From positions 110,749 through 174,748 of the forward strand of contig CAWFFV010000034.1 of NCBI GenBank assembly GCA_963814985.1: DNA of 64,000 nucleotides, read 5' to 3'. The stretch comes from an uncultured Chloroflexia bacterium (GTDB lineage Bacteria > Chloroflexota > Ktedonobacteria > Ktedonobacterales > Ktedonobacteraceae). The position numbers and the translations under genes were made by a program. Positions within the stretch are counted from its first letter, which is position 1. Each line of letters begins with the position of its first letter. The notes beneath the pieces were generated by a model, which was not told where the DNA came from, searched no databases, and saw only the letters and a program-made list of their open reading frames with translations. Shown here piece after piece: positions 8,093 to 49,261 of the stretch.

Positions 8093-8140
8093 GCAGTACT
8101 CAATATTTTTTGGTAATAAAGAGGGTTGTTTGGGAGAGGA

Positions 8141-8216
8141 TGGCGCGCCCAGCAGGGATCGAACCTGCGGCCAACCGCTTAGAAGGCGGTTGCTCTATCC
8201 ACTGAGCTATGGGCGC
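8141..8216 (-). tRNA. tRNA-Arg (anticodon TCT).
   Basis: The reverse complement reads GCGCCCATAGCTCAGTGGATAGAGCAACCGCCTTCTAAGCGGTTGGCCGCAGGTTCGATCCCTGCTGGGCGCGCCA. It forms a cloverleaf with a 7-nt anticodon loop CTTCTAA and has an encoded CCA end. Confidence 0.85.
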
Positions 8217-8361
8217 AATCTCACAGTCGAAAGCATGCTAACTTCAACTGCCACCCCCATAATAACAAGTCATGTTGTGGCCTGTCAAGTACCTGAATAT
8301 GAGATACAATAAATAGCACAGAATGTTTGTTCATCAAAAATTTGGAGGATTTTATTTAGGA

Positions 8362-8964
8362 ATGTGGACAAAAAATTTTTCATGGAAGATTACATTAGTA
8401 CTTGGTAGCCTCATGCTCTTCATGCTAGTCGCCTGTGGCGATGGGAATAATGGAAGTGCAAAAGCTACCCCTACATCTGCTCCACCGACAACGAGCACTC
8501 TGAGCACCTATAAAGGGGATGGCTATGAGATTGGCTATCCTCAGAGCTGGAAAGTCAATACAGGGAGTAATGGTCTCGTCACCTTTGCCGATCCTCAGGG
8601 GATTGCTTATGTCACTATCCATGTAATGCCCAATCCCAACGGAATAATCTCTACGGCTAACCAGGTGGAACTTGGATTACAGGGATTCAAATCACAGGCG
8701 AAGAATTACCAACAAGCGAATATTTCTCCAACGGCTACGCTAGGTGGTGATACCTGGAGCCAGGGTTCAGCCAGTGGAGAGGTGAAGGTTAACGGCCAAC
8801 CTACCCCTGTTTTGGTGAAAACCGTTATCCTTGCCAACAATCGTCCGGCACAGACACTTTCAACCAGAAGTTTTGTCATTGCCTATGCAACAGGTCAGCA
8901 GGTTTTTGATCTGGCAGATGTAGGTTTTTTCCAGCCAATGTTGCAATCGTTCAAGTTTGTCTAA
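8362..8964 (+). CDS. Hypothetical secreted protein or lipoprotein.
   Basis: A signal-like TM segment ends in the lipobox-like LVACGDG. The rest is Thr/Ser/Pro-rich and beta-rich. Confidence 0.45.
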   Translation: MWTKNFSWKITLVLGSLMLFMLVACGDGNNGSAKATPTSAPPTTSTLSTYKGDGYEIGYPQSWKVNTGSNGLVTFADPQGIAYVTIHVMPNPNGIISTANQVELGLQGFKSQAKNYQQANISPTATLGGDTWSQGSASGEVKVNGQPTPVLVKTVILANNRPAQTLSTRSFVIAYATGQQVFDLADVGFFQPMLQSFKFV

Positions 8965-8976
8965 ATGGATCTGGTC

Positions 8977-9128
8977 ATAAGTCATCCCGGTAACTATTCA
9001 GGTGTTCTCACCATCTGCGGTGGCCCGCCCTCGTTTTGTTGGCAGTGGCAGGGTTTGCGCCGCAAACCCTGCCACTGCCAACAAAACCTACGAAGCGCCT
9101 GTGGCGCTGAGGAGGCAGGGAAAAGGGA
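8977..9128 (+). repeat. Family-1 palindromic MITE copy; the right TIR is missing.
   Basis: A GTCATCCCG remnant is followed by GTAACTATTCAGGT, then ...CACCATCTGCGGTGG..., then a perfect 55-nt palindrome (GTTTTGTTGGCAGTGGCAGGGTTTGCG-C-CGCAAACCCTGCCACTGCCAACAAAAC), then CTACGAAGCGCCTGTGGCGCTGAGGAGGCAGGGAAAAG. Confidence 0.75.
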
Positions 9129-9166
9129 TGTCTCTAAATGCTGCTCTCACAGCGAGAGCGGCATTG

Positions 9167-9781
9167 TTATGTCATTATCTCTATGATCTTCTGTTGTAGA
9201 ATAGTCTCATCGACAGGACCAACCACCATCGAGCGAATAATCCCATGGAGGTCGATAAAATAGGAGGTTGGTGTCCCTTCCAGATTATACAGCGTTGCCA
9301 CACGATTATGCTCATCTAGAAGTACTGGATAGGTCAGATTATACTGCTGTACAAACTGTCGTGTGGTTTGTTCATCATCGACGCTATTCACACTCAGTAT
9401 GACAAAGCTCCTGCCTTCTGCCCGTTGGGATGCATAAAATCTCTGCATAGCAGGGATCTCTGCAAGACAACCAGGGCATGTCGCATACCAGAAGTTGAGT
9501 ATAACAGCTTTGTCACGGTAGTCACTCAAGCTCACTCGTACATCATCCAATCTCGCAAGAGTAAAATTGGGTGCGACACTGCCAATCTGGAGACCGACTG
9601 GTACCAACGAAGATGATGATGGAGAGAAAGGTTGTGTCACAGGAATAGCAGGCTTGAGTAATCCTGTCGTGATGATGGCCAGTGTTGCAATAACAGTCAC
9701 GACAATAATGCTACGAGTGATAAGTGCGGGTATGCTTCGACCAGCCGTAAGAGTCTGATGACGACTATCAGATTTACTCAT
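9167..9781 (-). CDS. Membrane-anchored thiol-disulfide oxidoreductase of the TlpA/ResA (redoxin) family.
   Basis: An N-terminal TM segment precedes the CxxC active site WYATCPGC, within a thioredoxin-fold motif set (VILNFW ... YPVLLD). Confidence 0.8.
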   Translation of the reverse strand: MSKSDSRHQTLTAGRSIPALITRSIIVVTVIATLAIITTGLLKPAIPVTQPFSPSSSSLVPVGLQIGSVAPNFTLARLDDVRVSLSDYRDKAVILNFWYATCPGCLAEIPAMQRFYASQRAEGRSFVILSVNSVDDEQTTRQFVQQYNLTYPVLLDEHNRVATLYNLEGTPTSYFIDLHGIIRSMVVGPVDETILQQKIIEIMT

Positions 9782-9808
9782 GAGATGTTTCTCTCCCAGG
9801 AAAGGCTT

Positions 9809-10924
9809 TTAATGTGTCGATGTCCCCCCCTTTGGCCATATAATGAATAAACAATGGCCTGTTTGCGTCTGACAGCTACATTCCACTTCAGTGACTTCCC
9901 AGGTGGCATCCAGGCCGACAAGGTGCAAAGTTGCCTCTAGTGACGCACTCCAGACATGACACACTGGTTCAGGGCGATAGGTACGTCCATAAACGTAGAG
10001 ATTACTATAATGGACCAACCAGTAACAGCCATCTTGCCGTGGCAGATACATATGTAACTCTTCGTCACGAATTGTATTCATCTCGCTGGTAAATGACTTC
10101 AACAGCATGCTCATTACCTGCTTCTCAGGAAGAAGATGAAGCATCTGTTGAGTCAACGTCGAGAGATGACGTTTCTGTAAAGAGATCTGGGTAGACATGT
10201 TGCTCCAACTGCGAAGTTGACTGATGGGATCATCAGGCCTTGAGCGTGCAACAGCCTGGTGAAGGCAAGTGAGATATTCGGCAGGAACGGAGCGGATGTC
10301 ATTATTGGGAGGCCATCCTCTGACCCGAGCATACTTGACCAAGCCTACATCTTGCATCAGCGTTGCCCATAGTTCAGCTCCGATCAGCTTATACGCGACC
10401 TGGAGCATCTGGCGAAAGTGACCGTTGCCCGAACAGCGCTTCTTGGAGACACGAGGCACCAAACCATGAGTCGGTAAGAGATCCAGGACAAGTGAGTGTT
10501 TCTTCTCCTGCATCTGTGATAGCGGTAAGACCCTTCTGATCACTTCTAGTAACTGAGCAGATATAAACGAGGTCTGAGTATCCTGATCAGACTCCTTAAA
10601 AGGAAAACACTCTTGCAAGGGAAGAACAGGAATATTCCTTCCTTGCTCATCGGACAGCTTCTGCACGAGACGCGAAAGGGCATAGCGGCTTTGAGTATCT
10701 ACCTGACCGAGCAAAACGGCATGTGGGACAAATTGTTCTTGAAGGAGGCGTTGGAATGCATGGAAAGGGGTAGTTGTCACATATGGACAATAGTCTGCGA
10801 GGGTCAGAACGCGTGCTGCACATTGTGCTCGTCCTTCATTGGCATCAATCACTAAGAGTGCAGAGTGCATCGTTGCAGGCATTGCTGGAGATGCCATCTC
10901 AATCTCCTTATCTATCATTTGCAT
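9809..10924 (-). CDS. Hypothetical protein with an N-terminal receiver-like region and a C-terminal Cys-rich, V4R-like region.
   Basis: LLVIDANEG is receiver-like. The C-terminal CHVWSASLEATLHLVGLDATWEVTEVECSC...GHCLFIIW resembles V4R/hydrocarbon-binding domains. Support is weak. Confidence 0.3.
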   Translation of the reverse strand: MQMIDKEIEMASPAMPATMHSALLVIDANEGRAQCAARVLTLADYCPYVTTTPFHAFQRLLQEQFVPHAVLLGQVDTQSRYALSRLVQKLSDEQGRNIPVLPLQECFPFKESDQDTQTSFISAQLLEVIRRVLPLSQMQEKKHSLVLDLLPTHGLVPRVSKKRCSGNGHFRQMLQVAYKLIGAELWATLMQDVGLVKYARVRGWPPNNDIRSVPAEYLTCLHQAVARSRPDDPISQLRSWSNMSTQISLQKRHLSTLTQQMLHLLPEKQVMSMLLKSFTSEMNTIRDEELHMYLPRQDGCYWLVHYSNLYVYGRTYRPEPVCHVWSASLEATLHLVGLDATWEVTEVECSCQTQTGHCLFIIWPKGGTSTH

Positions 10925-11205
10925 CTATTGCATCTCTTTGTAGAGTTTTTTACATTTTCATGGGTACATGCAGATTATTTTTGGTAGAGAACGGTGTGGA
11001 CAAGCTCACGGCTGTTATGTACAGTGACTCCCCTCACAAAAAATATAATAAAAAGAGAAGGAGGGAGATATAGGAACCTGTGTAGGCATCCGATGTATGC
11101 TGTTCGCCCATCTCTATTAGCCTGCGATCTGGATACTATCAATCAGTTTCCTGTACAGATCACGTGCCCGTTTAAGTATACATCAAGCGCCATCATATGT
11201 ATAGT

Positions 11206-11298
11206 CGGATAGATATTCAGACGTATAGTAATGGCAAAGGGATCATGCGTGTACATGCATGATCCCTTTGCCATTACTATACGTCTGGAATATCACCC
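11206..11298. repeat. Large near-perfect palindrome of about 90 bp, with 31-bp perfect arms around an 8-nt centre.
   Basis: The left arm CAGACGTATAGTAATGGCAAAGGGATCATGC (11218-11248) is followed by the centre GTGTACAT, then the right arm GCATGATCCCTTTGCCATTACTATACGTCTG (11257-11287). The flanks extend the palindrome with a single indel. Confidence 0.8.
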
Positions 11299-12060
11299 GT
11301 AACTACTCAGATCCCTGTTCCATGGGTCATCCCGGTAACTATTCAGGTACCCTCACCACCTGCGGTGGCTCGCTCTCATGAGTCATCCCGAACTTTTGAA
11401 AAAGTTCCCAAAACCGGGGGTGCAGGGTTTCCCTGCCGGGGCTTGGGGTGTCCCCAATAGCTTCTTTTTCCTCTCTCTCCGCCGCAAGCGGCGAGCAAAA
11501 GAAGGAAAAGATGTTTTTCGGGGGCACCCCAAACCCCGGCAGAAGGCTGCCGCCCTCTGCACTCCCGCTTGCCAAACAGGTCAAAAGGGCATTTCATGTC
11601 CCGGAAAAGTTCGGGATGACTCATTGCCTGCGAAGCGCCTACGGCGCTGAGGAATCAGGGAAAGAAACCTGAGTAGTTACGTCATCCCGAATTTTTCGAA
11701 CAAAGGTTCGCAATCTCTCAAGCGGCTTGAGAAGCGGGATTGTCAAGGGCGGCCAGCCCTTGACCGGGGTCTGACTTGTTATCACAACTTTAGTCGATCT
11801 GCTGAGCCAGCTTGGGAAGCTGACTCCCAAGGATGAGTTCAAGTGATTCTAGCTCAGCAGAACAGAGAGACGAGCCGTTTTCATCGGCTTGCCACCTGCC
11901 TTCACAAGATATCGACTAAAGTTGGATAACAAGTCAGACCCCGGCAGGGATGCTGCACTCCCTGCACCCTCGCTTTTGCGAACTTTTGAAACAAAAATTC
12001 GGGATGACTCATGGAACAAGAGCAAGCCACCGCAGGTGGCGAGCAGACCTGGATAGTTAC
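11299..12060. repeat. Composite nest of MITEs: a solo TIR, a family-1 MITE carrying a complete family-2 MITE (11378-11624) in place of its variable core, a second long family-2b palindromic element (11681-12013), and an inverted solo family-1 left arm (12014-12060).
   Basis: At 11335-11377, GTAACTATTCAGGTACCCTCACCACCTGCGGTGGCTCGCTCTC is followed directly by ATGAGTCATCCCGAACTTTTG...CAAAAGTTCGGGATGACTCAT, and then TGCCTGCGAAGCGCCTACGGCGCTGAGGAATCAGGGAAAGAAACCTGAGTAGTTAC ending at 11680. The family-2b element has internal inverted repeats GGGGTCTGACTTGTTATCACAACTTTAGTCGAT / ATCGACTAAAGTTGGATAACAAGTCAGACCCC. Confidence 0.75.
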
Positions 12061-12068
12061 GGGTGATA

Positions 12069-13695
12069 TTAATGAAAAAGTATCGAAGCCAGGATCAGGA
12101 CCACCACAGATTGTATGACCCAGGTAATCAGTCCAAGCATTATAGCTTTCATTCCCGCAGTTCTGATTGCAGATGACGTCACACGAGTACAGATCCCGAT
12201 AATTGCTAACATCAAAAAGACCGCAGAGAAAGTCGTGGGAAAGGTTTTTGCAGGCCATGTTGCTAATGGTCCTGTCAGCCCAACTGGAAGGGTAATCACG
12301 GTATTGATCAGCACTAACACGAAGAAAGCAAGCACAAAGAGTGGAAATGTCTTCAAGGCACCCGTCACAATAGTAGTTCCTTGACTTCTGGCCTCCTGTA
12401 CATTCTCTTTCCAATTAAAGAATATATTCAAGGAGAAAACAAGCACCACGATAAAGCCAATACAGAATCAACTTCACGAGCAGTGCAGCATTGAGTGCAG
12501 CTGTCCCTCCTCCTTGTTGAGCGGCTGCTATCAGCTGTGGTAAATCATGCATCGTTGCTCCTGTCCAGGCTCCATAGACGGCAGGGCTGAAGTGAAAGAT
12601 GCTATTGATCAGCGGATAGAGAAACAATCCTACTGTTCCCCAGCACAGGATCGTTCCCAGGGTAATGGCCGTTTCTTCATCTCTAGCACGAATAGCTGGC
12701 GATGTCGCCATGGTTGCCGTTATTCCACAGATGCCCGTGCCTGTTCCAATAAGAGCCGCTATGCGGGGATTGATTTTCATGAGTTTGCCAACGGACATGG
12801 AGACACCAACAGCAATCAAGACTGTCGAGGTAACGATGACGAGATCCTGTATCCCGGATTTGAGTAGGGAGGTGTAGGAAAATTTTAGAGCAGAGAGGAT
12901 GATACCAAGTCGAAGGAACCAGCGTGTGCTAAAGATCAGACCTGGCTGTATCCGTTCCGAAAGCGGATAAATATTCCCGACAATGAGAGCGAAAATCCCT
13001 GCGATAAAGATATCTACAAAAAAAGTATTGTGCAAACTGATTTCAATATTCCACAATAGTTCCGCTATAGCAGCAATTGGGAAAACCACGAGCAACAAGC
13101 CAGGCAATGCCCTCTGAATTTCCTCGTAACCAGGATAAAGAGGCGTGCCTCGCCACCCAAGGTAGCTCTTGAAGGGAAGCGTTTCCTCGTCTTGCAACGG
13201 AGAAGAGAACTCATGGAGAATACCTGTTACTTCCTCAGCCATGCTTCTACTATCAGGTTCTCTTGTCACTCTTAATCTGTTTGTCGCCTCGGTTTCTCCC
13301 TGGAAATTTGTTAAAAGAGCTTTGGAAGAGAGTAGCTCTTCTATTTGACCTGGGGAGTGCCTGGGATACAAACGTATCACTTCGTCTAAGCGTTGCATAT
13401 GTGTCGTTACATTCGGTCCCAGGTAAACACCTGGGAGACCACGAAGAAGCGCAGTATCTTCACCGAACACACGTCCTCCAAAGCAGAGGATCGGACGAGG
13501 ATGCTGCAAGTGGGCTACCTCTCGTCCCACCTCCTTCACATCATGGATACGGGAACGTTTCATCGCTGAAAGATAGATAATTCCTGGACGGATAGGACGT
13601 ATTGTCTCAAGCAACCTGGGCAAATCCCTGACCTCTGACAACTGTCCGTGATAATGTACATGGAATCCCGCACGACGCCAAAAGAGAGCCAGCAT
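12069..13695 (-). CDS. YeiH/UPF0324-family (putative sulfate exporter family) membrane transporter with an N-terminal B12-binding-like Rossmann domain. There is an apparent frameshift near 12415-12450, and the reading frame stays open upstream of the annotated Met.
   Basis: GTGTGICGITATMATSPA matches the YeiH GSSICGASA motif, and there are many TM segments. The N-terminal RKGLLIFVCSAPQETYEIDALMLALFWRRAGFHVHYHGQLS aligns to the B12-binding domain but lacks the canonical DxHxxG histidine. The last roughly 120 aa are in another frame (12069-12449). Confidence 0.55.
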
Positions 13696-13753
13696 GAGTG
13701 CATCGATCTCGTACGTTTCCTGTGGAGCACTACAGACGAAGATCAGGAGACCC

Positions 13754-13999
13754 TTACGAAGGTTCGGGGTGGCCTGAAAAGAGAAAGGAGAGGTATTTAT
13801 AAACCAGGGTGATGCTAAAGCCTTTTATGCTTGCTGATGTTGTGTTTGTATCTAATAACGCTCTTATACGAGAAAGAACTGGTTGTAACAGGGAGAGACA
13901 AACGTCTTCTGCGGGGTAATAGTGAAAGGCACTATCTAAAATGCGTAGTGCTATCGTTTCGTTCATCTGACCAAGAGCTTGTAGCAGTGGTTCTCCCAT
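13754..13999 (-). CDS. Helical domain resembling the B12-binding_2 (CarH four-helix cap) fold. It may be part of the downstream gene, in a different frame.
   Basis: ETIALRILDSAFHYYPAEDVCLSLLQPVLSRI resembles the B12-binding_2 consensus. Its stop lies 58 nt before the next ORF, whose frame remains open across the gap. Confidence 0.3.
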   Translation of the reverse strand: MGEPLLQALGQMNETIALRILDSAFHYYPAEDVCLSLLQPVLSRIRALLDTNTTSASIKGFSITLVYKYLSFLFSGHPEPS

Positions 14000-14016
14000 C
14001 CCATCTAAGTCAGGAA

Positions 14017-14451
14017 CTACACGGGAGATCCTTTCTTGCTGCTTCGTTTCATCGCTCTGGGAAACCTGTAGGAGTAACGACGAAGAGATACTCGGATGCG
14101 CCTTCGGGGGAAAAGCAAGCTTCGATCAAGTGGGGGATCTGTGACCGTATGTAGCGTTGAGACAAATGTTTCTGTTGCCTGCGGGATGATATCGCGTTTC
14201 CGTAACTCAACTGTGTAAGTGAGAATTGGTCGCAACAGGTTCTCGCAGACGACTATTGCGGGGTACATTATAAAAGCATCTGCCAGAATGCGAGTGGCAT
14301 TTGTCATGTTCGTCGAGGTGACAGCTTGCATCAGTTTGTCACGTAACTCTGGCAATTCGCGCTGTGGGGGGAGCAGTACGCTTGATGCACGATCGTTTGT
14401 ATATGAGGGATCATGACGCACCAGTTCTACAATAGCCTGCTGCAGACTCAT
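14017..14451 (-). CDS. Hypothetical protein, possibly a second B12-binding_2-like helical module.
   Basis: ATRILADAFIMYPAIVVCENLLRPIL shows weak similarity to the helical B12-binding cap. The start overlaps the upstream ORF's stop in ATGA. Confidence 0.25.
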   Translation of the reverse strand: MSLQQAIVELVRHDPSYTNDRASSVLLPPQRELPELRDKLMQAVTSTNMTNATRILADAFIMYPAIVVCENLLRPILTYTVELRKRDIIPQATETFVSTLHTVTDPPLDRSLLFPRRRIRVSLRRYSYRFPRAMKRSSKKGSPV

Positions 14452-14834
14452 ATTACTGGTAACCCGTTTGCAAAGCTAGCGTATTGCCGCAATATCACGT
14501 TGCGAATAGAGTTTCTGGTAATATTCACAGCCCAGGGAGAGGGGATGCTATAGAATTTTTCCCAGGCACGTAAGGTCATGAGAGGAATGTTAATTTCTGT
14601 GAGTACAACATCTATTTTGAAGCGTCGTGTGAATTCAAAAACGCGTAAGTGTGGGAGTCCATCGTCTACCAGTTGCTCCCAGGATGATTTCTGCGAAGGA
14701 AAAGGGGACAGTGCCTGCTGAAAATTCTTATATTTGCCTGAAAGCTGTTTATCCTCTCGTTCGTCCATAAACATCCTTTCATTGGTGCATAGGACAGAGT
14801 AACAAAGCGTCTGAGTGCGTTGTACGTTTCTCAC
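14448..14834 (-). CDS. MerR-family HTH protein of the light/B12-type (CarH/LitR-like recognition helix).
   Basis: FKIDVVLTEINIPLMTLRAWEKFYSIPSP matches the MerR HTH plus the TLRxWERxYGLPxP signature of CarH/LitR regulators. It is translationally coupled (ATGA) to the next ORF. Confidence 0.35.
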   Translation of the reverse strand: MRNVQRTQTLCYSVLCTNERMFMDEREDKQLSGKYKNFQQALSPFPSQKSSWEQLVDDGLPHLRVFEFTRRFKIDVVLTEINIPLMTLRAWEKFYSIPSPWAVNITRNSIRNVILRQYASFANGLPVI

Positions 14835-30298: not shown

Positions 30299-31237
30299 AT
30301 GGTACCGGGGACGAGTACAGAAAAGACAGTGACCATTGTCGGCATTCGTTTTCGTCCAGCAGGGCGTATTTATTACTTTGACCCTCAGGGACAATCCTTT
30401 GGGACAGGCCAGTATGTTCTAGTTGAGACCGTGCGTGGACTAGAAGCCGGGCGTGTCGTGATTGCTTCTAAGAAGGTCAAGGAGAGTGATCTAAGTGATC
30501 CTCTCAAACCGGTGCTGCGTCTGGCTACCGAAGACGAATTGCGTATGATGCTTTCCTTCAAAAGTAAAGAGAAGGAAGCTCTGGTTCGCTGTGCTGAACG
30601 CATTAGCCAGCATAGCCTGCCCATGAAGCTCGTCGAATCAGAGTATACGTTTGATGGGAGTCGGTTGACTTTCTATTTTACGGCTGATGAGCGAGTTGAC
30701 TTCCGAATACTGGTACGTGATCTGGCAGCTACTTTTCGTACACGTATTGAACTGCGCCAGATTGGTGCCCGCGACCAGGCCAAGTTGCAAGGTGGAGTTG
30801 GTCCTTGCGGGAAAACGTTATGTTGTAGTTCGTGGATTACTGATTTCGGCATTGTCTCAATCAAAATGGCGAAGGAACAAGGTCTCCCCCTCAATCCTTC
30901 AAAAATCTCTGGCGTATGTGGTCGCCTTATGTGCTGTCTCTCCTATGAAAACGACAACTATGTCCAGGCGAAACAACAGATGCCACAGATCGGGACATTC
31001 TTCACAACTCCCAGTGGACAGGGCAAAGTTGTCTCGGTGAATGTACCACAAAATTCGGTCGAAGTGATGCTGGAAAGTGGCGTAACAATCCAGGTACCTG
31101 TCAACGAACAGCAAGAGAAGAAGAGTCAGGGCGGGTGTGGCAGTTGTGGTGTCAAAGGTGAGGGAGGGAGCAGTGGAGGAGGTGGCAGTTGTGGCAGCGG
31201 AGGGTGTGGATCTTGCGGCATCAAGAAGAGATTCTAA
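30299..31237 (+). CDS. ricT: PSP1-domain protein (RicT/YaaT family) with a Gly/Cys-rich C-terminal tail.
   Basis: The PSP1 C-terminal core GPCGKTLCCSSWITDF...GVCGRLMCCLSYE is present. Confidence 0.82.
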   Translation: MVPGTSTEKTVTIVGIRFRPAGRIYYFDPQGQSFGTGQYVLVETVRGLEAGRVVIASKKVKESDLSDPLKPVLRLATEDELRMMLSFKSKEKEALVRCAERISQHSLPMKLVESEYTFDGSRLTFYFTADERVDFRILVRDLAATFRTRIELRQIGARDQAKLQGGVGPCGKTLCCSSWITDFGIVSIKMAKEQGLPLNPSKISGVCGRLMCCLSYENDNYVQAKQQMPQIGTFFTTPSGQGKVVSVNVPQNSVEVMLESGVTIQVPVNEQQEKKSQGGCGSCGVKGEGGSSGGGGSCGSGGCGSCGIKKRF

Positions 31238-31274: not shown

Positions 31275-32842
31275 GTGCGCATACATATGTCGTCAGACGG
31301 GAAGGAACCGGGTGCCGTATGGCAAGGTCCCACAAATTCCAGTTGGGGCCACTCCTTTGACCAGGCTCAATCACCAGATCAGGATGATCTATCTTTTTTC
31401 CCCGATTCGCAGGACGAGGAGGAAGAACATCCAGACGTTTCCCTCTCCCAAAGAGAGGAAAGCTTTGCAAGTAGATTGGGACCTGTTGCCTCGCTATTGG
31501 GCCTGTTCAAACAGTTCAGGCAATATGTTACCATCATACTATTACCGTTACTCTTTGGTGGACTCACCTGTTTATTTGTTCTCTTGTTTGTGATGACCGG
31601 GCGAGCCGTTGTTCCCACTTTGGGACTCTGGATCATTCTCGCCATTATCATCATTATTGCTCTGGCACAAGGATTAGTGGTCTACTCCGTAGGAACAAAT
31701 AATGGGTTCCGCGTAGTATTTACCATTGTTGGTCTCTTCCTCTTTATGCTGGTTGGCTGCTTTACTGTCTTTGGCCCACTGGCAGGGTTAGTGTTGCTGG
31801 TTCTCCTTGTTATTGTCTCTATTGCGCTGGCGCGTCTCACCATTCATCCAGTGCCGGAAGGCTATGTGGATATTGCTTACTCATTTGGGAAGTACAATCG
31901 AACGATTTACCGGGGCTTTAATCTCCTCATGCCCTGGGAGAAAGTGATGCACCAGTTAAACGTAGAGGAGACACAGTGGATATGTCCTGTTCAGAGAATA
32001 CAACTGTCACACGACCAGGATGTTATTCTACGCGCCGCCCTGTCGTACCAACTGGTGGCTGAAGATGCATATCTTGCTGTAACCCAGGTCAACCACTGGG
32101 AAGAGAGCCTGCGGGAACTCTTTATCACCGCTCTTCAATCTATTGTTCCTACATTCACGCCTGATGATTTTCTGATCTGGCCGCAAGGTTTCCATAGCGC
32201 TCCCAGGATTAGCCAGGAATTAAATGCATTCGCCGAAGGAAGTGCACGTTGGGAGCATGTCAGCAATTTGTTATTCCAGCAGATGCGCGACAAAGTAGCC
32301 TTGTGGGGAGTGCAGATCAATTGGGTGAGTATCCGTGACGTCTATCTCGGACCGCATGAGCAGGTTATGGTACAGGCTCACAAAAGCGCCGATGTAGAGC
32401 CAGAAGCGACTACACAGGTAACCAAAGTGGAACCCCCTGCTCAGCCACCGAAGGCTCCTCCGGTCCTGCATCTCCAAAGCCAGCTCAAGAGGTACCACCA
32501 GCAGCAAGTAAGCCTCCAGCAGCAAATGCAGATACATCACCATCACCTAAAACGATGCAAGAAAAGATTCTTATCAAGGTCTACAAAGAAGTGCAGAGTG
32601 GTAAGATCACAGATCCAGAGACCATTCGCGGGATTGCTGCAAAGTTTGAGGAGATTACGAATGATCCTAAAGCCAGCCAGGAGGTTAGTTTTGACGCTGC
32701 TCGTGCTGCGCTAAATCTGTATGCTCAAGCAAAAAAGTGTGAAGAGCAGCCACATAGCATGGCTCCACTCTATAGCAATGAGACCAGACCAGACTTGCCC
32801 AATCGCCCCACGCCCACAAACAATCTTGTCCATGGGGAGTGA
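31275..32842 (+). CDS. SPFH/Band-7 (stomatin/prohibitin-like) membrane protein, with an apparent frameshift near 32440-32470 and a Pro/Ala-rich C-terminal region.
   Basis: TM helices precede the SPFH core (VPEGYVDIAYSFGKY...WGVQINWVSIRDV). The natural continuation (GPASPKPAQEVPPAASKPPAANADTSPSPKTMQEKIL...) is in frame +2 and ends at 32842. Confidence 0.7.
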
Positions 32843-32844
32843 GG

Positions 32845-33110
32845 ATGACGGCGCTATCAGCCTTTCATATGATGATCAAGCCACGAGGAGCAATTTGTAA
32901 ACTGGATTGCTCCTATTATTATTTCCTCTCTAAAGAATTTGCCATAGAACATACAACTGGGCTGTTTATTCCTGTGACCTCTATATAGAGGGCATCCAAC
33001 GACCGTATTCTCTCCACATCTGATAGCGAATCTGGTTTGAACTACCCCTGTGATGGATACAAGGCGTTCTTTACCCACATTGACCAAACAATGCACAGAA
33101 TGGCAGCAGA
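32845..33110 (+). pseudogene. Decayed remnant of a radical-SAM, anSME-like (SPASM-type) maturase.
   Basis: MTALSAFHMMIKPRGAICKLDCSYYYFLSKE aligns to the anSME N-terminus FHLMAKPTGPICNLDCKYCFYLEKE, with the third Cys replaced by Tyr. It is followed by stops and frame breaks, and only about 300 nt remain. Confidence 0.45.
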
Positions 33111-33303
33111 ACTACGAGCCGGATCTCCATCGGCTAAGATTATGCGTTATTCTGTATTTCAATTTTTATGATCAAAAATAGCTAAATCAACCTTGTAATG
33201 ATTCCGCACCTGTATACGTGTATTTTATAGGATCATTCATAATTTCCAGAGAAACCGGCACTTCCTATCGTCCTATCTGAACCCACTTTAAGGAGAGACT
33301 ACC

Positions 33304-34495
33304 TTGGTTGTTGATGACTATCAATTGATCTTGCCCCAACCATATCATGCTATTGCAACAGAAGATGTCGAGATCTACTACCATGCCTATCAAGATGAGC
33401 TTCAGCTATCCGAGCAAACGGTAGGAGAGCGCCTCCTCGCCGTCAAGAGAGATATCCAACAAACGCAGACATATCATCAGACCTACGAGGAGCTTGTCAT
33501 TGGCGCTCGCTTAGCCTGGCGTAACGCTACTCGCTGTATTGGTCGCTTGAACTGGCAATTACTGCAAATGCGAGATATGCGCCATCTTACTTCTGCAAAT
33601 GACATATTTCAGGAATTGCTTGAGCATATTCAACTGAGTACCAATGCAGGAAAAATTCGTCCCATCGTGACAGTTTTTGCTCCACAGAGGCCTGGTCAGC
33701 CTGGTCTACGGATCTTGGAATAGTCAGTTGATCCGCTACGCCGGATATCGCTTAGCGAATGGTGACTGCCTGGGTGATCCGTTGGAGATAGATTTTACGA
33801 ATGCTGCATTGCATCTCGGCTGGAAGGGGGCAGGAACAGCTTTTGATATTCTTCCGTTGATCATTCAACTTCCTGGACAGAAGCCTCAGTTCTTTGAAAT
33901 ACCCCCCCAATATGTACTCGAAGTCCCTATTGTTCATCCAGACTATGCCTGGTTTGCCGAACTTGGTCTTAAATGGTATGCATTTCCTGCCATATCAAAC
34001 ATGTGCCTGGAGATAGGGGGTATACGATATACATCGGCTCCTTTTAGCGGATGGTATCTCGAAACAGAAATCGCTACACGCAATTTTGCAGATACAAACC
34101 GCTATAATATGCTGCCAACTATTGCCCAGAAGATGGGCTTGAATGTGCGCTCTGAGCGTTCACTCTGGAAAGATCAGGCGTTAGTAGAGCTTAATAAAGC
34201 AGTTCTTCATTCATATGCCAAAAAGCATGTCACGATAATTGACCATCATACCGCTGCCCGTCAATTCATTTTACATGAAGAACGAGAGCAAAATGCCGGC
34301 CGCAAGACACCAACTGACTGGAGATGGATTGTTCCCCCTCTCTCTCCCTCAACAATGTCTGTTTATCATCGTAGCTATGAGTTTGTCCAGTTGAAGCCAA
34401 ACTGGTTTTATCAACCCGTTGGATGGAAATGTCCCGTAGAGGACTCGTTACAATCTGGGCACGCATGCCCGGCAGGATTGGAGAAACGCGTGTGA
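33304..34495 (+). CDS. nos: Bacterial nitric-oxide synthase oxygenase domain (bNOS), with a 1-nt frameshift near 33695-33705.
   Basis: The heme-thiolate motif AWRNATRCIGRLNWQ is present, along with WNSQLIRYAGY, WYAFPAISNMCLEIGG and IIDHHTAARQF...WRWIVPPLSPS, all colinear with bacterial NOS. The ORFs 33304..33723 and 33677..34495 overlap in different frames. Confidence 0.85.
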
Positions 34496-35295
34496 AGATC
34501 AATATAACAGTATGTGAACTCCCTGACGAGCGCTCCGCATTTCTTCGTGCGTGGGAAGGACTCGTAGAGCATGTTCACGATAAAGCAAGTCAGATCGTGA
34601 TTCTCCCAGAGATGCCTTTCTCTGCCTGGTTTGCGGCAGATCCACAATTTCACGCGTCGACATGGCAAGATGCTGTTGAAGCGCATGAGTCCTGGATGAG
34701 TCGCCTGCAAGAGCTTGCACCCGCAAGTGTTCTGAGTAGTCGTCCCGTCTATCATGGACAGAAACGCCTCAATGAAGGTTTTCTCTGGGAAAACGAGCGT
34801 GAGTATGGATATCGACCTGTTCACCAAAAATACTATTTGCCCAATGAGGCCGGATGTTGGGAGGCATCCTGGTATCAGCAAGGCGATGGAATGTTTGTAC
34901 CATTAGAATATCAAAATATCTCTCTTGGTATGCTTATCTGCACAGAATTGTGGTCTCCAACGCATGCGCAACAGTATGGGCAAGCCGGAGTTCACCTGCT
35001 TGTTGTCCCTCGTGCAACCGAACGCGCAACAGTAGAAAAGTGGATCGTGGGTGGGCAGGCAGCGGCCATTATTGCAGGCGCGTTCTGTGTGTCCTCAAAC
35101 CGGGTCAGTACCCAGGAAAAAGGGGGAGCATTCGGAGGAGGCGGTTGGATCATCGGGCCAGATGGAGATATCCTGGGCCTGACATCCCAGGATGAGCCTT
35201 TTATCACGATAGAGATTGACCGGCACGCAGCCATACGGGCCAAAGACACCTACCCTTGTTCAGTATTCATCAGGGATAGAGATGCCAGTCGATAG
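34492..35295 (+). CDS. Carbon-nitrogen hydrolase family protein (nitrilase/amidase superfamily), translationally coupled to nos.
   Basis: The catalytic-triad contexts VILPEMPF (Glu), K within QKYYL, and LGMLICTELW (Cys) are present. A GTG start at 34492 overlaps the nos stop (GTGTGA). Confidence 0.7.
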   Translation: MKINITVCELPDERSAFLRAWEGLVEHVHDKASQIVILPEMPFSAWFAADPQFHASTWQDAVEAHESWMSRLQELAPASVLSSRPVYHGQKRLNEGFLWENEREYGYRPVHQKYYLPNEAGCWEASWYQQGDGMFVPLEYQNISLGMLICTELWSPTHAQQYGQAGVHLLVVPRATERATVEKWIVGGQAAAIIAGAFCVSSNRVSTQEKGGAFGGGGWIIGPDGDILGLTSQDEPFITIEIDRHAAIRAKDTYPCSVFIRDRDASR

Positions 35296-36522: not shown

Positions 36523-36783
36523 TATGAGCCATCCTGAACTTTTGTTTCAAAAGTTCGCAAAAGCGAGGGTGCAGGGAGCGCAGCATCCCTGCCGGGGTCT
36601 GGGGTGTCCCCAGAAACTCTTTTTACCTCTTTTGTACGCCGCTGCAGGCGGCGTGAGAGGAGAGAGAAAGAGGCAGGGGACACCCCTGCAACCCCGGCAA
36701 AGGGCGGCTGCCCTTTGCAATCCTGCTTCTCAAGCCGCTTGAGAGATAATGAACTTTTGTTCTAAAAATTCGGGATGACCCAT
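36523..36783 (+). repeat. Complete family-2 palindromic MITE of 261 bp; it overlaps the 3' end of ung.
   Basis: TIRs ATGAGCCATCCTGAACTTTTG ... AAAAATTCGGGATGACCCAT flank an internal long imperfect palindrome (GGGTGCAGGGAGCGCAGCATCCCTGCCGGGGTCTGGGGTGTCCCC ... GGGGACACCCCTGCAACCCCGGCAAAGGGCGGCTGCCC). Confidence 0.8.
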
Positions 36784-37559: not shown

Positions 37560-38870
37560 TTAGCTTTTCGACCCTTGCCCAAACTTTTTTTTCTTGTCTT
37601 CTGCAAGCTGAGGTACATCAAGTTTGTTTTGAGCGATTATAGGGAGCGAGGATGAGAAGCAAAATGGCGTCTGGTAGCAGCAATCTGAGAAAAGCCCTGA
37701 CGATGAAGAAGAGTGATGGCAAGATTGCGGAAAGCAGCCATGATTTGTGGAGCCTGACCAGAGCGCAAGCGAGAACGATCTTCGCCAAAGGTCACATCAC
37801 GAACATAATGAGAGGAGTTCTCAATGCCCCAATGTTCGCGAACCAATTCCAGTAAACGTGATGGATCAGCCTCCTGAGGAGTCAGAGGCGTAATGAGATA
37901 CACAACTTCCTGGCTGGTTTTTCCTGTTTTGCGAATGGTGACGGTTCGTGTGAGTTCGGCGACTTGTTGGATGAGTGGCCAGTCAGCAAGATACGAGTTC
38001 ATTTCGGTGCTCACACGCAGAGAACGCGTTTCAATGCGTCCCCGATGCTGATCAAGGGTGGAGCACTGGAGAAAAGAAGCGTGTGGATCGGCGAAATAGG
38101 TTGCCAGGTCTGCATAGAGGGTCGGCTGATTTTTTTGACCGTGAGGACGGTTTTCCCTCCTAATGCATCAACACACAACATGAAATTCTTTTGTGTATGC
38201 AGAGCATCAGCGGTAAAGACCCGCCCTGCTATGGGCAAGCAAGGCAAGAGCGCCTGGGCAATGGGGATCTCGTTGGTTTTCTCGGAAACAACAACTTGCA
38301 GCAAGGTTTCCTGGCTCTTGTGTGTGCGGAAGGAGAGCAGATGGGGAGCAGCATGCTCTGCCGTTTTGGCACCACGAACGGTCTTGCCATCCAAGGCAAT
38401 AGGATCGTCTGGTGCAGCGTGCAGCGTCCTGCGAATCCAGTCTGCCAATGCCCATTCGATCTGTTCAGCATTTAAACGGGGCAGGAGTTTGCGGAAGAGT
38501 AAATCGCTCGGACAAAGGAAGGTTCGTGCTCCAAACAGACGAATGAGCAAGCAACGCTGATCTCGGCACCACTGTCCAATGGCCAGGGTCGAATCACAAT
38601 TGCACAATAATGCTGCCACCAAGCAAGTGAGCAAGAAAGGCAAATCATAGCGTTGTCCATGCTTAGAGCGAGGATCGGGTAGGGTTGCAAACAGCTCATA
38701 GAGGCTCAACAATGGGCGATCTGCAAGCAACTGGTGTCGATGATCACTGCTGAGAGACGGCAGGGTGAGTGACAATGCGGTAGAATAGGTCATGTGAGAC
38801 TCCTCCTTGTAGATAGATCTGTTAGTACTTCCTATCTTACCAAGTTTTGGAGTCTCTTGCTCTCAGCAAT
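37560..38870 (-). mobile_element. ISAs1-family insertion sequence; boundaries are approximate.
   Basis: Encloses the frameshifted transposase. The element ends were not resolved by eye. Confidence 0.4.
37637..38793 (-). CDS. ISAs1-family (H-repeat-associated) DDE transposase, split into two ORFs by a frameshift at about 38011-38014.
   Basis: The N-terminal ORF has FATLPDPRSKHGQRYDL...LCN and IALDGKTVRG. The C-terminal ORF has REHWGIENSSHYVRDVTFGEDRSR, the ISAs1 signature. Confidence 0.8.
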
Positions 38871-39017
38871 AATTCACAAGCCCTGCATCATAAGGGCATA
38901 CCAGACTTGACAAAGATCGCCAAAATGCCTATAATACAAGTAAATCCGAGTTGACAAGTCAGGATTAGAGGAAGCAAACGGCTTTCTGCGCAGTGATAGA
39001 CACCAGCCAGTAAGTGG

Positions 39018-40433
39018 AGTAAATCTCATGAGTGGACAGGCATTTGAGCTGGAACAGGGTACGTATAGTGCCGGGTTCCACGTGGCTGAAAATTATGCAT
39101 TTAAGTCCGAAAGAGGGCTGAGACAGCAAAGTCGTTGAGCAGATCTCCGAGATGAAGGGCGAACCTGGCTGGATGCGCAATTCCGCCTCAAGAGCCTGGA
39201 TCTCTTCGAGAAACGTCCCATGCCAACCTGGGGTGCTGATCTGTCTGGCATTGACTTCGACAATATCTATCTATTATATTAAGCCAGTAGCAGAACAGGG
39301 GAAAACCTGGGACGATATTCCATCAGACATTAAGGACACCTTTGATCGACTGGGTATCCCGCAGGCTGAGCAGAAGTATCTGGCAGGCGTAACGGCACAG
39401 TACGAGAGTGAAGCGGTTTACCATAAAGTTCGTGAAGATCTTGAGAAGATCGGTGTGATCTTTACCGACATGGATACGGCTTTGCGCCAGTATCCTGACA
39501 TCTTGAAAGAGCATTTCGGCACCATTATTCCACCATCCGACAACAAATTCGCCTCGTTGAACAGTGCGGTGTGGAGTGGTGGCAGCTTTGTGTATGTGCC
39601 AGAGGGTGTACGTGTCGAAATTCCTCTCCAGGCTTACTTCCGCATTAATGCACAGAACATGGGCCAGTTCGAGCGCACCTTGATTATTGCTGCTCCTGGC
39701 TCCTATGTCCACTATGTTGAGGGTTGTACCGCCCCAACCTATGCCAGCGATAGCCTGCATAGCGCCGTCGTTGAGATCAAGGTCATGGAAGGTGCACGCG
39801 TTCGCTACACGACCATCCAGAACTGGTCGAAGAATGTCTACAATCTGGTGACCAAGCGTGCAGCAGCGTACCGGGATGCCACAATGGAATGGGTCGACGG
39901 AAACCTTGGCTCGAAGGTGACGATGAAGTATCCGGCAGTTCTTCTGATGGAGCCCGGTGCTCGTGGTGATATCCTTTCGGTTGCCTTTGCTAGCGATGGT
40001 ATGCACCAGGATGCTGGAGCCAAGGTCACGCATCTGGCACCGCATACGACATCGCAGAATTCTCTCGAAGTCTGTTTCCAAGGGGACAGGTCGAGCCTCC
40101 TATCGAGGTCTGGTCCGTATCAACCCTGGTGCACACCACACCAAATCCAGTGTTCGCTGTGACGCACTCTTGCTCGACGAGGATGCTCGCACCGATACCT
40201 ACCCAACCATCCGGGTAGAGAAGAACGAGACCGAGATCGGCCACGAAGCCACCGTCTCCAAAGTTGGTGAGGATCAGCTCTTCTACCTGATGAGCCGTGG
40301 CCTGGACGAGTCCGAAGCCTACTCTCTGATCGTCAATGGCTTCATTGAGCCGATCACCAAGGAGCTTCCCATGGAGTACGCGGTTGAGTTGAACCGCCTG
40401 ATCCAGTTGGAGATGTCCGGCAGCGTGGGCTAA
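39018..40433 (+). CDS. sufB: Fe-S cluster assembly protein SufB, carrying at least 3 apparent frameshifts (near 39175, 39285 and 40030-40090), with no sufC/sufD/sufS adjacent.
   Basis: Colinear SufB blocks (ISEMKGEPGWM, FRLKSLDLFEKRPMPTWGADLSGIDFDNIY, YYIKP...TFDRLGIPQAEQKYLAGV, HLAPHTTSQ, ASYRGLV...CDALLLD...GHEATVSKV...FYLMSRG...EYAVELNRLI) are distributed over three frames. Confidence 0.75.
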
Positions 40434-48156: not shown

Positions 48157-49261
48157 GTGGAACTGGAAGAGGAACAAAAAAATCCTGAAACCGAAGATAT
48201 GCCTCTTTTCTCTTCAGACAGAGAAGAAACAGCGATGGATAAACAGGACACAGTTAGCCAAAGCAGTTACGAGAAAATTCGACAACAAGCACATGAGTAT
48301 CTCAAATCTGGGCACTGGTCCCAGGCGGCTGAAAGCTTCCTGGAGCTACTCGATTTGAATGCGCAAGATGAAGATGTATTGCAAGGCGCGGCAATGGCAC
48401 TTGACGGGATAGGTCGCTATGATGCGCTCTTGAGTACAGCACAATGTCTTCTCGATATAAATCCAAATTCGGCCATGGGGTTGGCCTCGAAAGCACGTGC
48501 CCTGCAAAAGCTAGAGCGCCTCTCCGAAGCTATGATTGCCAATGATCAGGCCCTACTGCTTGACACGAACCTCACTCTGGCCTGGATCAATCGTAGCGGG
48601 CTACAAGTCTTGCAGCAGAAATTTCCTGAAGCCCTGCGCAGTTCCCAACGAGCGATCGAACTGGACCCCAATGACGCGCGTGCCTGGGCCAACCGGGGTG
48701 TGGCCTTGCTCAACCTTAATCGGCTCCCAGAAGCTCTGGAGGCCTTCAATCACAGTCTGGCTCAGAATCCCAATCCCAATCATCTCTTTGCATTACAGAT
48801 GAAGGGTGAGATCCTCTCTAAGTTGGGGCGTATATCTGAGGGTAATTACAACAACTCATGAGGCCCTGGCCATCGATCCCAAAAATGTTTTCGTGCTCTC
48901 GCAGGCTACTCAGGCTCTGCGTTCACTGGAACTCTACACGCCCTTAAAAGAGACCACCAGCGAACTGATCAAGCTTACGCCCGATAGCCTCTTTGCCTGG
49001 GAACACTATATGCGTGCGTTACGCGGTCTGGGTCAGTATACAGAAGCGAACGAAGCACTTGATCGTGTTCTGGAGTTGGACCCTTCCAATGTAAGCTTCT
49101 GGACCATGAAGGCCGATACACTCTACAGGTTGGAGCGCTACCGCGAAGCGGTCATTATAGCGGATCGTGCGGTCAGACTCAACCAGGGCTATGCTCCCGC
49201 ACATCGCATTCATGAGAAGTCACTGAAGATGATGTACCAGAGAAAAAAAAAGAAGAAGTAG
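48157..49261 (+). CDS. TPR-repeat protein, split by an apparent frameshift in the 48806-48861 overlap.
   Basis: TPR motifs continue across the ORFs 48157..48861 and 48806..49261, which are in different frames. Confidence 0.65.

Follow-up and report, generated by a model that had tools for sequence, protein, structure and literature searches.

Gene content of the nos locus

The window analysed here, the whole stretch of 64,000 nucleotides, comes from the genome of a soil member of the Ktedonobacteria. Its forward strand carries a gene for a bacterial NO synthase (nos, 33304-34495) directly followed by a gene for a C-N hydrolase of the nitrilase superfamily (34492-35295). As assembled, nos does not form the single uninterrupted frame expected of a NOS gene, and is covered by two open reading frames, at 33304-33723 (frame 0) and at 33677-34495 (frame +1), with one extra T at 33715/33716. 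The 5' part (33304-33714) comprises codons 1-137 and includes the haem-thiolate motif WRNATRCIGR with Cys78, and frame 0 then ends at a TAG codon at 33721-33723. The 3' part (33716-34495) comprises codons 138-396 and the TGA stop codon, and includes WNSQLIRYAGY and the substrate-binding Glu255 within GWYLETEI. Deletion of one T at 33715/33716 (ATC-T-TGG) gave a protein of 396 residues, which matched the NO_synthase model PF02898 over positions 9-361 of 362 with a score of 526.7 bits (E = 3.5e-158; cut-off, 22.7). This full-length match, together with the detection of both WRNATRCIGRLNW and WNSQLIRYAGY in the product, confirmed the identity as bNOS that the original prediction had assigned from these motifs. 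The columns of Cys78 (RCIGR) and Glu255 (GWYxxTEI) were invariant across 122 aligned NOS sequences. The protein consists of the oxygenase domain alone, as a single Pfam domain without a fused reductase, and the next gene is that of the hydrolase.

A Shine-Dalgarno-like sequence read from the DNA, AAGGAGAG at 33287-33294 on the forward strand, is located 9 nt upstream of the TTG start codon of nos. A consensus scan directly 5' of nos found no sigma-70-like promoter, and the Rfam scan for a riboswitch or other RNA element in the 5' region returned a far-off tRNA as the sole match. Promoters or terminators that would separate nos from the hydrolase gene were also searched for, and only weak consensus matches (9/12), none of them convincing, were obtained.

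The hydrolase gene, on the same strand, encodes a protein of 267 residues identical to the public gene call P0001 and matching PF00795 with 79.9 bits (cut-off, 23.2). Its GTG start codon at 34492 and the TGA stop codon of nos at 34493-34495 overlap by 4 nt (GTGA within GTGTGA), and thus both the C-N hydrolase and the stop/start overlap anticipated from the sequence were found. A GGAG ribosome-binding site was read at 34480-34483 on the forward strand, inside the 3' end of nos and 8 nt before the GTG, and the homologues of the hydrolase share this start point, with the consensus xxxKVTVCEL. The triad Glu40, Lys113 and Cys150 and the second Glu, Glu124, were all present and were invariant across 122 aligned family members, whereas position 256 is Cys in this protein and Arg in all 121 others. 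The AlphaFold2 model of the hydrolase (pLDDT 94.4) showed the alpha-beta-beta-alpha sandwich fold, and Foldseek gave a probability of 1.00 and a TM score of 0.84 to 6mg6. The best structural matches were 6mg6, 9wpo (CJ1056C) and 5h8i/5h8j, and the best solved relatives were the H. pylori CNH (6mg6), the Medicago N-carbamoylputrescine amidohydrolase, beta-ureidopropionase and D-carbamoylase.

A remnant of an anSME-type radical-SAM/SPASM gene lies upstream of nos at 32839-33171 on the forward strand, consisting of 111 codons in one frame with an internal stop at 32986-32988. Residues 10-37 matched positions 1-28 of TIGR03942 (E = 3.2e-5), and the last 38 residues matched positions 367-404 of the 412 of PRK13745 (E = 5.1e-5). 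In sequence searches of the PDB, the C-terminal piece had a weak match to residues 337-376 of 4k36, and the N-terminal piece had no match. These end matches, and the cluster motif CKLDCSYY, in which CxxxCxxC has degenerated to CxxxCxxY, were in agreement with the predicted radical-SAM remnant. When compared to anSME (TIGR03942/PRK13745; PDB 4k36), the pieces of about 28 and 38 residues correspond to the two ends of the enzyme, correctly ordered and within a single frame, but about 330 central codons are missing, so that only the first 30 or so and the last 40 or so residues of the family are left. The remnant has lost the third Cys and most of the radical-SAM core and SPASM domain, and judging from this sequence it is not a functional gene. 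The earlier proposal of a former, larger NOS cluster to which this gene belonged was not supported, as none of the related NOS loci carries an anSME gene; the five compared by tblastn share no such gene with the window, and the remnant was rejected as a cluster component.

The large ORFs between 30.3 and 45.6 kb encode PSP1, Band 7, DUF6585, UDG, a transposase, SufB, a protein kinase and a sigma/anti-sigma pair, and the nos-hydrolase pair stands alone among housekeeping genes. A two-ORF IS element, identified with Pfam (DDE_Tnp_1_assoc and DDE_Tnp_1), is located on the reverse strand at 37637-38793, 2.3 kb downstream of the pair. In Dictyobacter arantiisoli, a homologous IS element was found 1.5 kb downstream of the corresponding pair (57-65% identity by tblastn to 13527-14782 of that locus).

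Origin of the single-base shift in nos

When the window was searched by tblastn with five homologous NOS genes, every alignment broke at exactly 33714|33716, and the one-base insertion originally predicted near 33700 is therefore present in the assembled sequence and was placed correctly to within 15 nt. At this site the relatives read ...RIWN(S/T)Q..., and the window contains an extra T (ATC-TT-GG). The remainder of the gene is well preserved. The 260 codons past the shift are open, the repaired protein retains 51 of 51 family-invariant residues, and it deviates at 10 near-invariant columns, when intact members of its clade deviate at 7 to 16.

Frameshifts were also detected in sufB, a TPR gene and a PF03601 gene of the same window. 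The sufB gene contains at least four frame switches, and its protein sequence is otherwise perfectly conserved. A single-base deletion closed one of these switches (near 40058) and the break in the TPR gene; the three breaks pinned down, in nos, sufB and the TPR gene, are all one-base insertions beside an identical base. Single-base repair left the breaks in the PF03601 gene and in a B12-binding gene open, and these breaks are more complex. As other genes in the window are frameshifted as well, the extra T splitting nos is probably an assembly or sequencing error. The switches in sufB are hard to reconcile with viability, which makes errors the likelier cause. The frameshift, regarded in the original prediction as a possible sign of decay, is thus better explained as a probable artefact, and pseudogene calls from this assembly would not be trustworthy without the reads. 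Programmed frameshifting in nos was considered separately and rejected, as the shift occurs in none of the five relatives (0/5) and AUC-UUG-G is not among the known slippery sites.

It may instead be supposed that the frameshift is real, that this strain has no active NOS and that its hydrolase has been left without a partner, in a plastic region rich in IS elements from which genes are being lost. The public assembly carries the frameshift and calls nos only as a 255-residue fragment of its 3' part (P0121), and the genome could be rich in pseudogenes if several genes of the window were truly frameshifted. The anSME gene cut down to its two ends immediately 5' of nos, the IS element 2.3 kb downstream and Cys256 of the hydrolase at an otherwise invariant Arg also fit real local decay. 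We nevertheless regard such a decaying remnant as rather improbable, because nos is undamaged apart from one base and no more diverged than its intact clade-mates, the protein encoded by the repeatedly switched sufB is perfectly conserved, and the catalytic triad of the hydrolase is intact. Mutation in bacteria is biased toward deletion, and every shift that was located is a +1 insertion beside an identical base. Since the single-base insertion is most likely an assembly error, the organism probably has a working nos-hydrolase pair, as far as can be judged from the sequence.

Recurrence of the nos-hydrolase pair

The NOS search retrieved 5190 database proteins at E<=1e-20, several of which carry the names Ktedonobacteraceae or Ktedonobacterales and two of which are from D. 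arantiisoli. NOS, the presence of which had been highlighted as notable, is common in Ktedonobacteria. The six closest NOS proteins formed a distinct clade (NJ bootstrap 50/50) with 18 shared clade-specific substitutions at positions otherwise at least 80% conserved. A gene for this hydrolase was located within 3 kb of the NOS gene in all five clade members with usable flanks, and in four of them the two genes are adjacent on the same strand. In D. arantiisoli (L002), NOS at 9983-11158 is followed by the hydrolase at 11242-12033, and in L052, NOS at 8001-9137 is followed by the hydrolase at 9225-9977. The order is reversed in L057, with the hydrolase at 8815-9567 and NOS at 10001-11125, and in L001 the two genes are 2.6 kb apart on opposite strands. 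The hydrolase was absent from 43 of 43 other genome NOS loci (retrieved flank up to 10 kb) and from 3 of 3 next-tier metagenome NOS loci, that is, from 46 more distant loci in all.

This recurrence in five of five members of the closest clade supports the predicted functional link between nos and the hydrolase, for which a search of other genomes had been suggested. The overlapping stop and start codons are not a general trait, as they were found only in the window genome. Gaps of 83 to 433 nt occur in the relatives, besides the reversed and opposite-strand arrangements. Our literature search found no relevant paper on NOS with Ktedonobacteria or Chloroflexi, or on NOS with nitrilase, and the clade-specific pairing of nos with a C-N hydrolase is new.

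The genes around the pair differ among the clade members. When every ORF of at least 70 residues from five related loci was compared by tblastn with the window, only NOS, the hydrolase and the IS transposase were shared, in addition to a weak match to an MFS transporter (31% identical, 27 kb away). In L001 and L052 the pair is found beside a methyltransferase gene, two genes resembling FAD halogenases/monooxygenases and an alpha/beta hydrolase gene, with an amine oxidase gene also in L052 only, as the contig of L001 stops short of this position. In L002 it is found beside genes for a lysine-2,3-aminomutase-like radical-SAM protein, a Pre-ATP-grasp/PGM1 ligase, a methyltransferase and a SET protein. 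The suggested link to specialised metabolism thus stood in part, since the pair of three relatives does lie beside biosynthetic-looking genes, but these comprise two different sets. The thaxtomin-type nitration chemistry also proposed from the sequence was not supported in the form of a NOS-P450 pair, as no P450, PKS or NRPS gene was present in the scanned flanking ORFs or among the Pfam domains listed for the related loci.

The pair might be a portable cassette that donates NO to specialised metabolism. In it, NOS would play a role like that of TxtD, RufN or PtnF, the NO suppliers of biosynthetic gene clusters, and the hydrolase would act on a pathway intermediate instead of citrulline. The neighbours in the three relatives and the clade's own substitution pattern are compatible with this possibility, and actinobacterial clusters that use NO have been discovered by NOS-guided mining (PMC10831120). 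We consider it very unlikely, as the two sets of biosynthetic-looking neighbours are unrelated, such neighbours are absent from the window and L057, and no locus contains a P450 partner. Only the pair is constant, which argues that the role of the hydrolase is tied to the chemistry of NOS and not to a particular scaffold.

The hydrolase itself is not specific to NOS. Hundreds of proteins, at about 55% identity, belong to its family, and at least four homologues apart from NOS occur in unrelated contexts (including L047/L048); a scan of metagenomes with the hydrolase as query gave only two loci, neither carrying NOS. A subfamily of hydrolases dedicated to NOS was rejected, as the family was star-like by identities and in NJ trees, the NOS-linked copies formed no clean clade, and P0006, which is not linked to NOS, was placed in the same neighbourhood as the window copy. 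These results raise the possibility that the adjacency was inherited but is functionally incidental, the hydrolase being a housekeeping amidase, e.g. a divergent N-carbamoylputrescine amidase for polyamine synthesis, that lay beside nos in the ancestor of the clade. The widespread occurrence of the family in non-NOS contexts, the absence of a separate NOS-linked subfamily and the canonical nature of the window copy (one deviation at 80 conserved columns) would agree with this, as would the JGI label of many family members, N-carbamoylputrescine amidase. An incidental adjacency still appears distinctly unlikely to us. The linkage has outlasted the turnover of all other neighbours, the order reversal in L057 and the strand flip in L001, at only 62-66% NOS identity, and in the window genome the genes overlap by 4 nt. 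The Pfam domains assigned in the homologue loci that were examined include no agmatine deiminase. The aguB model (the equivalog TIGR03381), one of the two best NCBIfam models for the hydrolase, scored 42.3 bits, far under its cut-off of 410.25, and the protein is therefore related to AguB without being an AguB orthologue.

Possible role of the pair and relation to known systems

Among characterised enzymes, those nearest to the hydrolase are N-carbamoylputrescine amidases, which take the carbamoyl group off N-carbamoylputrescine and so cleave a ureido group. Citrulline is N-delta-carbamoyl-ornithine. The explanation we tentatively favour, at slightly less than even confidence, is that nos and the amidohydrolase gene constitute a two-gene operon of a distinct Ktedonobacteria NOS clade, that the hydrolase converts the NOS co-product citrulline to ornithine, and that the split in nos is an assembly error. 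The synthase would oxidise L-arginine to NO and L-citrulline, and the hydrolase, as a putative Cys-Glu-Lys amidase, would cleave the ureido group of citrulline to give ornithine, CO2 and NH3. The net conversion would be that of arginine to NO and ornithine, by which the co-product would be cleared or recycled. The two genes have stayed together in the clade as their surroundings changed. In the window genome we infer that they are expressed as an operon, in which the GTGA overlap and the internal GGAG may provide translational coupling. The assignment of the hydrolase as a citrulline-to-ornithine enzyme is likewise a prediction from sequence.

A broader and less probable variant, which we think rather unlikely, is that a Ktedonobacteria-specific NOS lineage has recruited the nitrilase-superfamily amidase as an obligate partner for processing a NOS-derived nitrogen product, either citrulline or N-delta-cyano-ornithine, and that the cassette, shifting from one IS-rich site to another, provides NO to the different biosynthetic clusters that it joins. 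N-delta-cyano-ornithine is a side product formed from N-hydroxy-arginine by mammalian NOS when the enzyme is uncoupled or pterin-free. If citrulline were the product processed, a closed cycle from arginine to NO and ornithine would result. Bacterial NOS is usually described as stand-alone or as the partner of P450s in nitration pathways. A conserved amidase partner, if true, would be a second kind, new for NOS, and would point to a route by which the co-produced citrulline or a side product of NOS is dealt with. The pair could also help to find natural-product clusters of Ktedonobacteria that depend on NO, and D. arantiisoli, a named isolate, carries both genes intact.

The hydrolase shares with AguB/CPA (Medicago 5h8i and H. 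pylori CNH 6mg6) the nitrilase-superfamily fold (TM about 0.8), the Glu-Lys-Cys triad, the second Glu and the K-x-x-x-P...E...G motif. It differs from them in being only about 20% identical, in its length (267 residues against about 290-300) and in having no agmatine deiminase partner, and position 174, an invariant Arg in its family, aligned with a Ser of the H. pylori enzyme. Francisella Ctu/AguB, a PF00795 protein that hydrolyses both citrulline and N-carbamoylputrescine, is the only reported bacterial citrullinase (PMC9007349; PMC9251427). The likeness of the window hydrolase to Ctu (EC 3.5.1.20) is drawn through the common Pfam family and the literature description.

The window NOS resembles the B. 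subtilis-type bsNOS in its single oxygenase domain of about 390 residues, the haem-thiolate Cys in RCIGR and the substrate Glu in GWYxxTEI. It is, however, only 47-51% identical to Bacillus NOS and belongs to a separate, long-branched Ktedonobacteria clade, and the NOS loci of Bacillus, Anoxybacillus, actinobacteria and cyanobacteria have no C-N hydrolase neighbour. When compared with the NOS enzymes encoded in clusters (TxtD/TxtE for thaxtomin, RufN/RufO for rufomycin and PtnF for 8-azaguanine), the present system is similar in that a stand-alone NOS is tied to a partner enzyme and, in three relatives, lies beside biosynthetic-looking genes, but the constant partner of NOS in this clade is a C-N hydrolase instead of a P450.

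Reading frame of nos and other interrupted genes

Three features were present on the + strand between 32.8 and 35.3 kb, namely nos, encoding a bacterial nitric-oxide synthase (NOS, 33304-34495), a C-N hydrolase gene (34492-35295), and the remnant of a gene for a radical-SAM enzyme. Re-examination of the ORFs and domain matches found these features to be accurately described in the original prediction. The first nos ORF ran from a TTG at 33304, with AAGGAGAG ahead of it, to a TAG at 33721-33723, while the second ORF continued in the +1 frame to a TGA at 34493-34495. Removal of one T from ATCTTGG (33713-33719) fused the two ORFs into a 396-aa protein, which matched the Pfam NO_synthase oxygenase domain nearly end to end (526.7 bits, E 3.5e-158). 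When five homologous NOS genes were compared with the window by tblastn, all the alignments broke at 33714|33716, indicating that the lesion was one inserted base only. The synthase belonged to the bacterial NOS family, showing every testable feature except an uninterrupted frame.

The frame-repaired nos retained all 51 residues invariant in a 122-sequence alignment, and its 10 departures at near-invariant columns were conservative and within the range of its intact clade-mates (7 to 16). Roughly 260 codons downstream of the shift were open. A programmed frameshift was ruled out, as the shift was not conserved in the relatives.

Other genes in the window were also interrupted. The sufB gene (38980-40433, +; its two large ORFs at 39152-40433) switched frame at least four times, at about 39110, 39175, and 39270 and near 40058, and its protein was otherwise well conserved. 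When one base was deleted at CAG-A-ATT near 40058, these two ORFs gave a single SufB-like frame of 427 aa ending with ...LEMSGSVG; out-of-frame residues were still seen at its 5' end, and the 5' end of the gene changed frame at least three more times between 38980 and 39280. A TPR gene (48157-49261, +) was split by an extra G in the GGG run at 48840-48842, and removal of one G closed the frame. On the - strand within 12072-14125, a PF03601 (YeiH-like) membrane-protein gene was split near 12450 and a B12-binding_2/B12-binding pair was possibly split near 13790; no single-base deletion repaired either of these two breaks. The three breaks that could be pinned down (nos, sufB near 40058, and the TPR gene) were all +1 shifts with the extra base beside an identical base. 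The Band 7/SPFH gene (31275-32842, +), just upstream of the radical-SAM remnant, may contain one further frameshift. Its tail after about 32440, rich in Arg, Lys, and Leu, seemed out of frame, and was followed by a Pro/Ala/Ser-rich linker and a well-formed 95-aa ORF (32555-32842) in a different frame.

The breaks in sufB pointed to an indel-prone assembly. As multiple shifts hit an Fe-S assembly gene with an otherwise well-conserved protein, sequencing or assembly errors were the simplest explanation, and the frameshift in nos was probably such an artefact. Alternatively, the locus may be undergoing real decay, as it is flanked by a gene remnant and an IS element, and codon 256 of the hydrolase gene (35257-35259) is TGT for Cys where all 121 other aligned family members have Arg; against this, nos was intact apart from the extra T and several further genes in the window were frameshifted. 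Cys256 itself may represent a harmful substitution, an error of sequencing, or a peculiarity of the lineage. The residues around this codon were TYPCS in place of TYPRY.

Linkage of NOS and hydrolase within one NOS clade

The occurrence of NOS in this organism, previously regarded as notable in itself, turned out not to be so, as the group was not poor in NOS: the 5190 NOS proteins detected at E<=1e-20 included several named Ktedonobacteraceae or Ktedonobacterales, with two from Dictyobacter arantiisoli. This species gave the best named match to the window NOS (64%). IspH encoded in the window showed 84-89% identity to those of Ktedonobacteraceae MAGs, Ktedonosporobacter rubrisoli, and Dictyobacter species. 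In the 122-protein NOS alignment, the window NOS clustered with the proteins P0122/P0255, P0123, P0124, P0125, and P0126 (62-66% identity), and this six-member clade was monophyletic in 50/50 neighbor-joining bootstrap replicates. The members had 18 substitutions in common at positions at least 80% conserved among the remaining aligned NOS. The substituted residues included 225, 227, 234, 241, 248, 252, 304, 308, and 354 in the window numbering (for example L227F, R234C, S241R, N248S, M252L, F304Y, G308K/H, and F354Y), several of the 18 flanking the substrate-binding GWYxxTEI segment.

Genomic context was obtained for all six members and was usable in five. The hydrolase gene in the window started, as predicted, with a GTG at 34492 overlapping the nos stop (GTGTGA), with GGAG 8 nt upstream; this 4-nt overlap was peculiar to the genome of the window. 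NOS was followed by the hydrolase after a gap of 83 nt in D. arantiisoli (L002) and 87 nt in the metagenome contig L052. The order was reversed on the same strand in L057 (hydrolase, 433-nt gap, NOS), and the two genes were 2.6 kb apart on opposite strands in L001. The hydrolase was not found in the small flank present on the 3-kb contig of the remaining member, L053. This hydrolase was also not found in the retrieved flanks (up to 10 kb) of 43 other genomic NOS loci, including those of Bacillus, Anoxybacillus, Sphaerisporangium, Nonomuraea, and Aliinostoc, and the three metagenomic NOS genes next in similarity (58-60% identity) had none beside them. The synteny search suggested in the original prediction found the pairing to be conserved within one NOS clade.

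When all ORFs of the five related loci with a length of 70 aa or more were translated and compared with the window, the matches comprised NOS, the hydrolase, the transposase of an IS, and a 31%-identical MFS transporter located 27 kb away. NOS and the hydrolase were therefore the sole constant across the loci. The pair outlived full turnover of the neighbors, one order reversal (L057), and one strand flip (L001), and this persistence argues for selection on the linkage. Alternatively, the hydrolase could be a housekeeping amidase with adjacency to nos just inherited. At least four homologues were located in contexts without relation to NOS, such as a SIS-domain gene with PRPP synthetase, CofC/CofD, prolyl oligopeptidase, and others.

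Neighboring genes, mobile elements, and the radical-SAM remnant

The pair adjoined biosynthetic-looking genes in three relatives, in two mutually unrelated sets. The metagenome contigs L001 (3133-11909) and L052 (1-9977) had in common a methyltransferase, two FAD halogenase/monooxygenase-like proteins, and an alpha/beta hydrolase. An amine oxidase was also encoded in L052; the L001 contig stopped short of that position and had an MFS transporter. These surroundings looked like a NOS-containing biosynthetic cluster without P450. The region 2361-13497 of L002 (NZ_BIXY01000068), encoding a lysine-2,3-aminomutase-like radical-SAM enzyme, a Pre-ATP-grasp/PGM1-type ligase, a methyltransferase, a weak JmjC match, a SET-domain protein, and a 645-aa protein upstream of the pair and a LuxR regulator downstream, may be an uncharacterised small-molecule cluster. 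The hydrolase could be a tailoring enzyme in a natural-product pathway. In the window and in L057 the pair stood alone, which favors a role linked to the chemistry of NOS over one linked to a single scaffold, and would also be compatible with a portable cassette supplying NO.

The pair resides in IS-rich, plastic regions. A two-ORF IS element (DDE_Tnp_1_assoc and DDE_Tnp_1; 37637-38793, -) was located 2.3 kb downstream of the window pair, in D. arantiisoli a 57-65% identical element (L002 13527-14782) followed the pair at a distance of 1.5 kb, and transposase/integrase fragments were seen within 0.5 kb of the pair in L052 and L057. Between the genes for DUF6585 and uracil-DNA glycosylase (36525-36772), a G+C-rich stretch of approximately 200 nt was flanked by direct repeats of 33 nt, which were 79% identical and each had a palindromic core; this segment is possibly a small repeat element that was inserted. 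The 3' end of a PSP1-domain gene (31130-31218) encoded a Gly/Cys-rich tandem repeat of GGCGSCG-like units.

The predicted wreck of roughly 300 bp upstream of nos, resembling an anaerobic sulfatase-maturating radical-SAM enzyme (anSME), was real. It occupied 32839-33171 (+), with 111 codons in a single frame interrupted by one stop, and its cluster motif had degenerated to CKLDCSYY. The first approximately 30 and last approximately 40 residues represented opposite ends of the anSME family, matching positions 1-28 of TIGR03942 and 367-404 of 412 of PRK13745. Its interpretation as a trace of a former larger cluster around nos was not borne out, as an anSME-like gene was found at no related NOS locus, and we regard the remnant as a casualty of local rearrangement unrelated to NOS. 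A 20-nt inverted repeat (90% complementary; 32650-32669 and 33228-33247) bracketed the remnant, possibly by chance; one arm fell within the ORF upstream, and 57 nt separated the other from the start of nos.

The hydrolase and its possible substrate

The hydrolase was a 267-aa C-N hydrolase (PF00795, 79.9 bits), identical to the public gene call P0001, and its N-terminus fitted the family consensus xxxKVTVCEL. The nitrilase-superfamily triad E40, K113, and C150 and the second glutamate E124 were present, all four being invariant among 122 family members. The AlphaFold2 model was confident (pLDDT 94.4). The top matches by both sequence and structure were the H. pylori carbon-nitrogen hydrolase 6mg6, described as CPA-like (PMC12961655), and Medicago N-carbamoylputrescine amidohydrolase, with Campylobacter CJ1056C ranking alongside by structure only; Nit2, D-carbamoylases, and beta-ureidopropionase followed (TM about 0.8, identity about 20%). 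Members of the family (574 matches at E<=1e-5, star-like at about 55% identity) were often named N-carbamoylputrescine amidase by the automatic annotation of JGI. The window hydrolase belongs to the nitrilase superfamily and is related to N-carbamoylputrescine amidases without being one of them, and an AguB orthologue was ruled out (42 bits versus the cut-off of 410).

The NOS-linked hydrolases did not form a clean subfamily. The L001 and L002 copies were sisters, and those of L052 and L057 were a fast-evolving sister pair, with 20 of 80 conserved columns altered in the L052 copy. The canonical window copy, with one deviation at these columns, fell within a 32-leaf group that also included P0006, a homologue without NOS linkage.

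Citrulline, the co-product of NOS, is N-delta-carbamoyl-ornithine, and N-carbamoylputrescine is its decarboxylated analogue with the same ureido group. The hydrolase may convert citrulline to ornithine, CO2, and NH3, and together with NOS would convert arginine to NO and ornithine. Side products of NOS, for example N-cyano-ornithine, are further candidates for the substrate; this chemistry comes from the mammalian NOS literature. Citrulline hydrolysis would be directly testable in D. arantiisoli Uno17, a named isolate with both genes intact; the window pair contributes little besides the overlap and may suffer from assembly errors. The finding covers six clade members, five with usable context, and the function is a proposed one. 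A conserved NOS-amidohydrolase module was not encountered in the published literature within a limited search. The only bacterial citrullinase reported is Francisella Ctu/AguB, a PF00795 protein acting on both citrulline and N-carbamoylputrescine (PMC9007349, PMC9251427). Citrulline hydrolysis is proposed here because the two compounds have the ureido group in common and the Francisella enzyme cleaves both.
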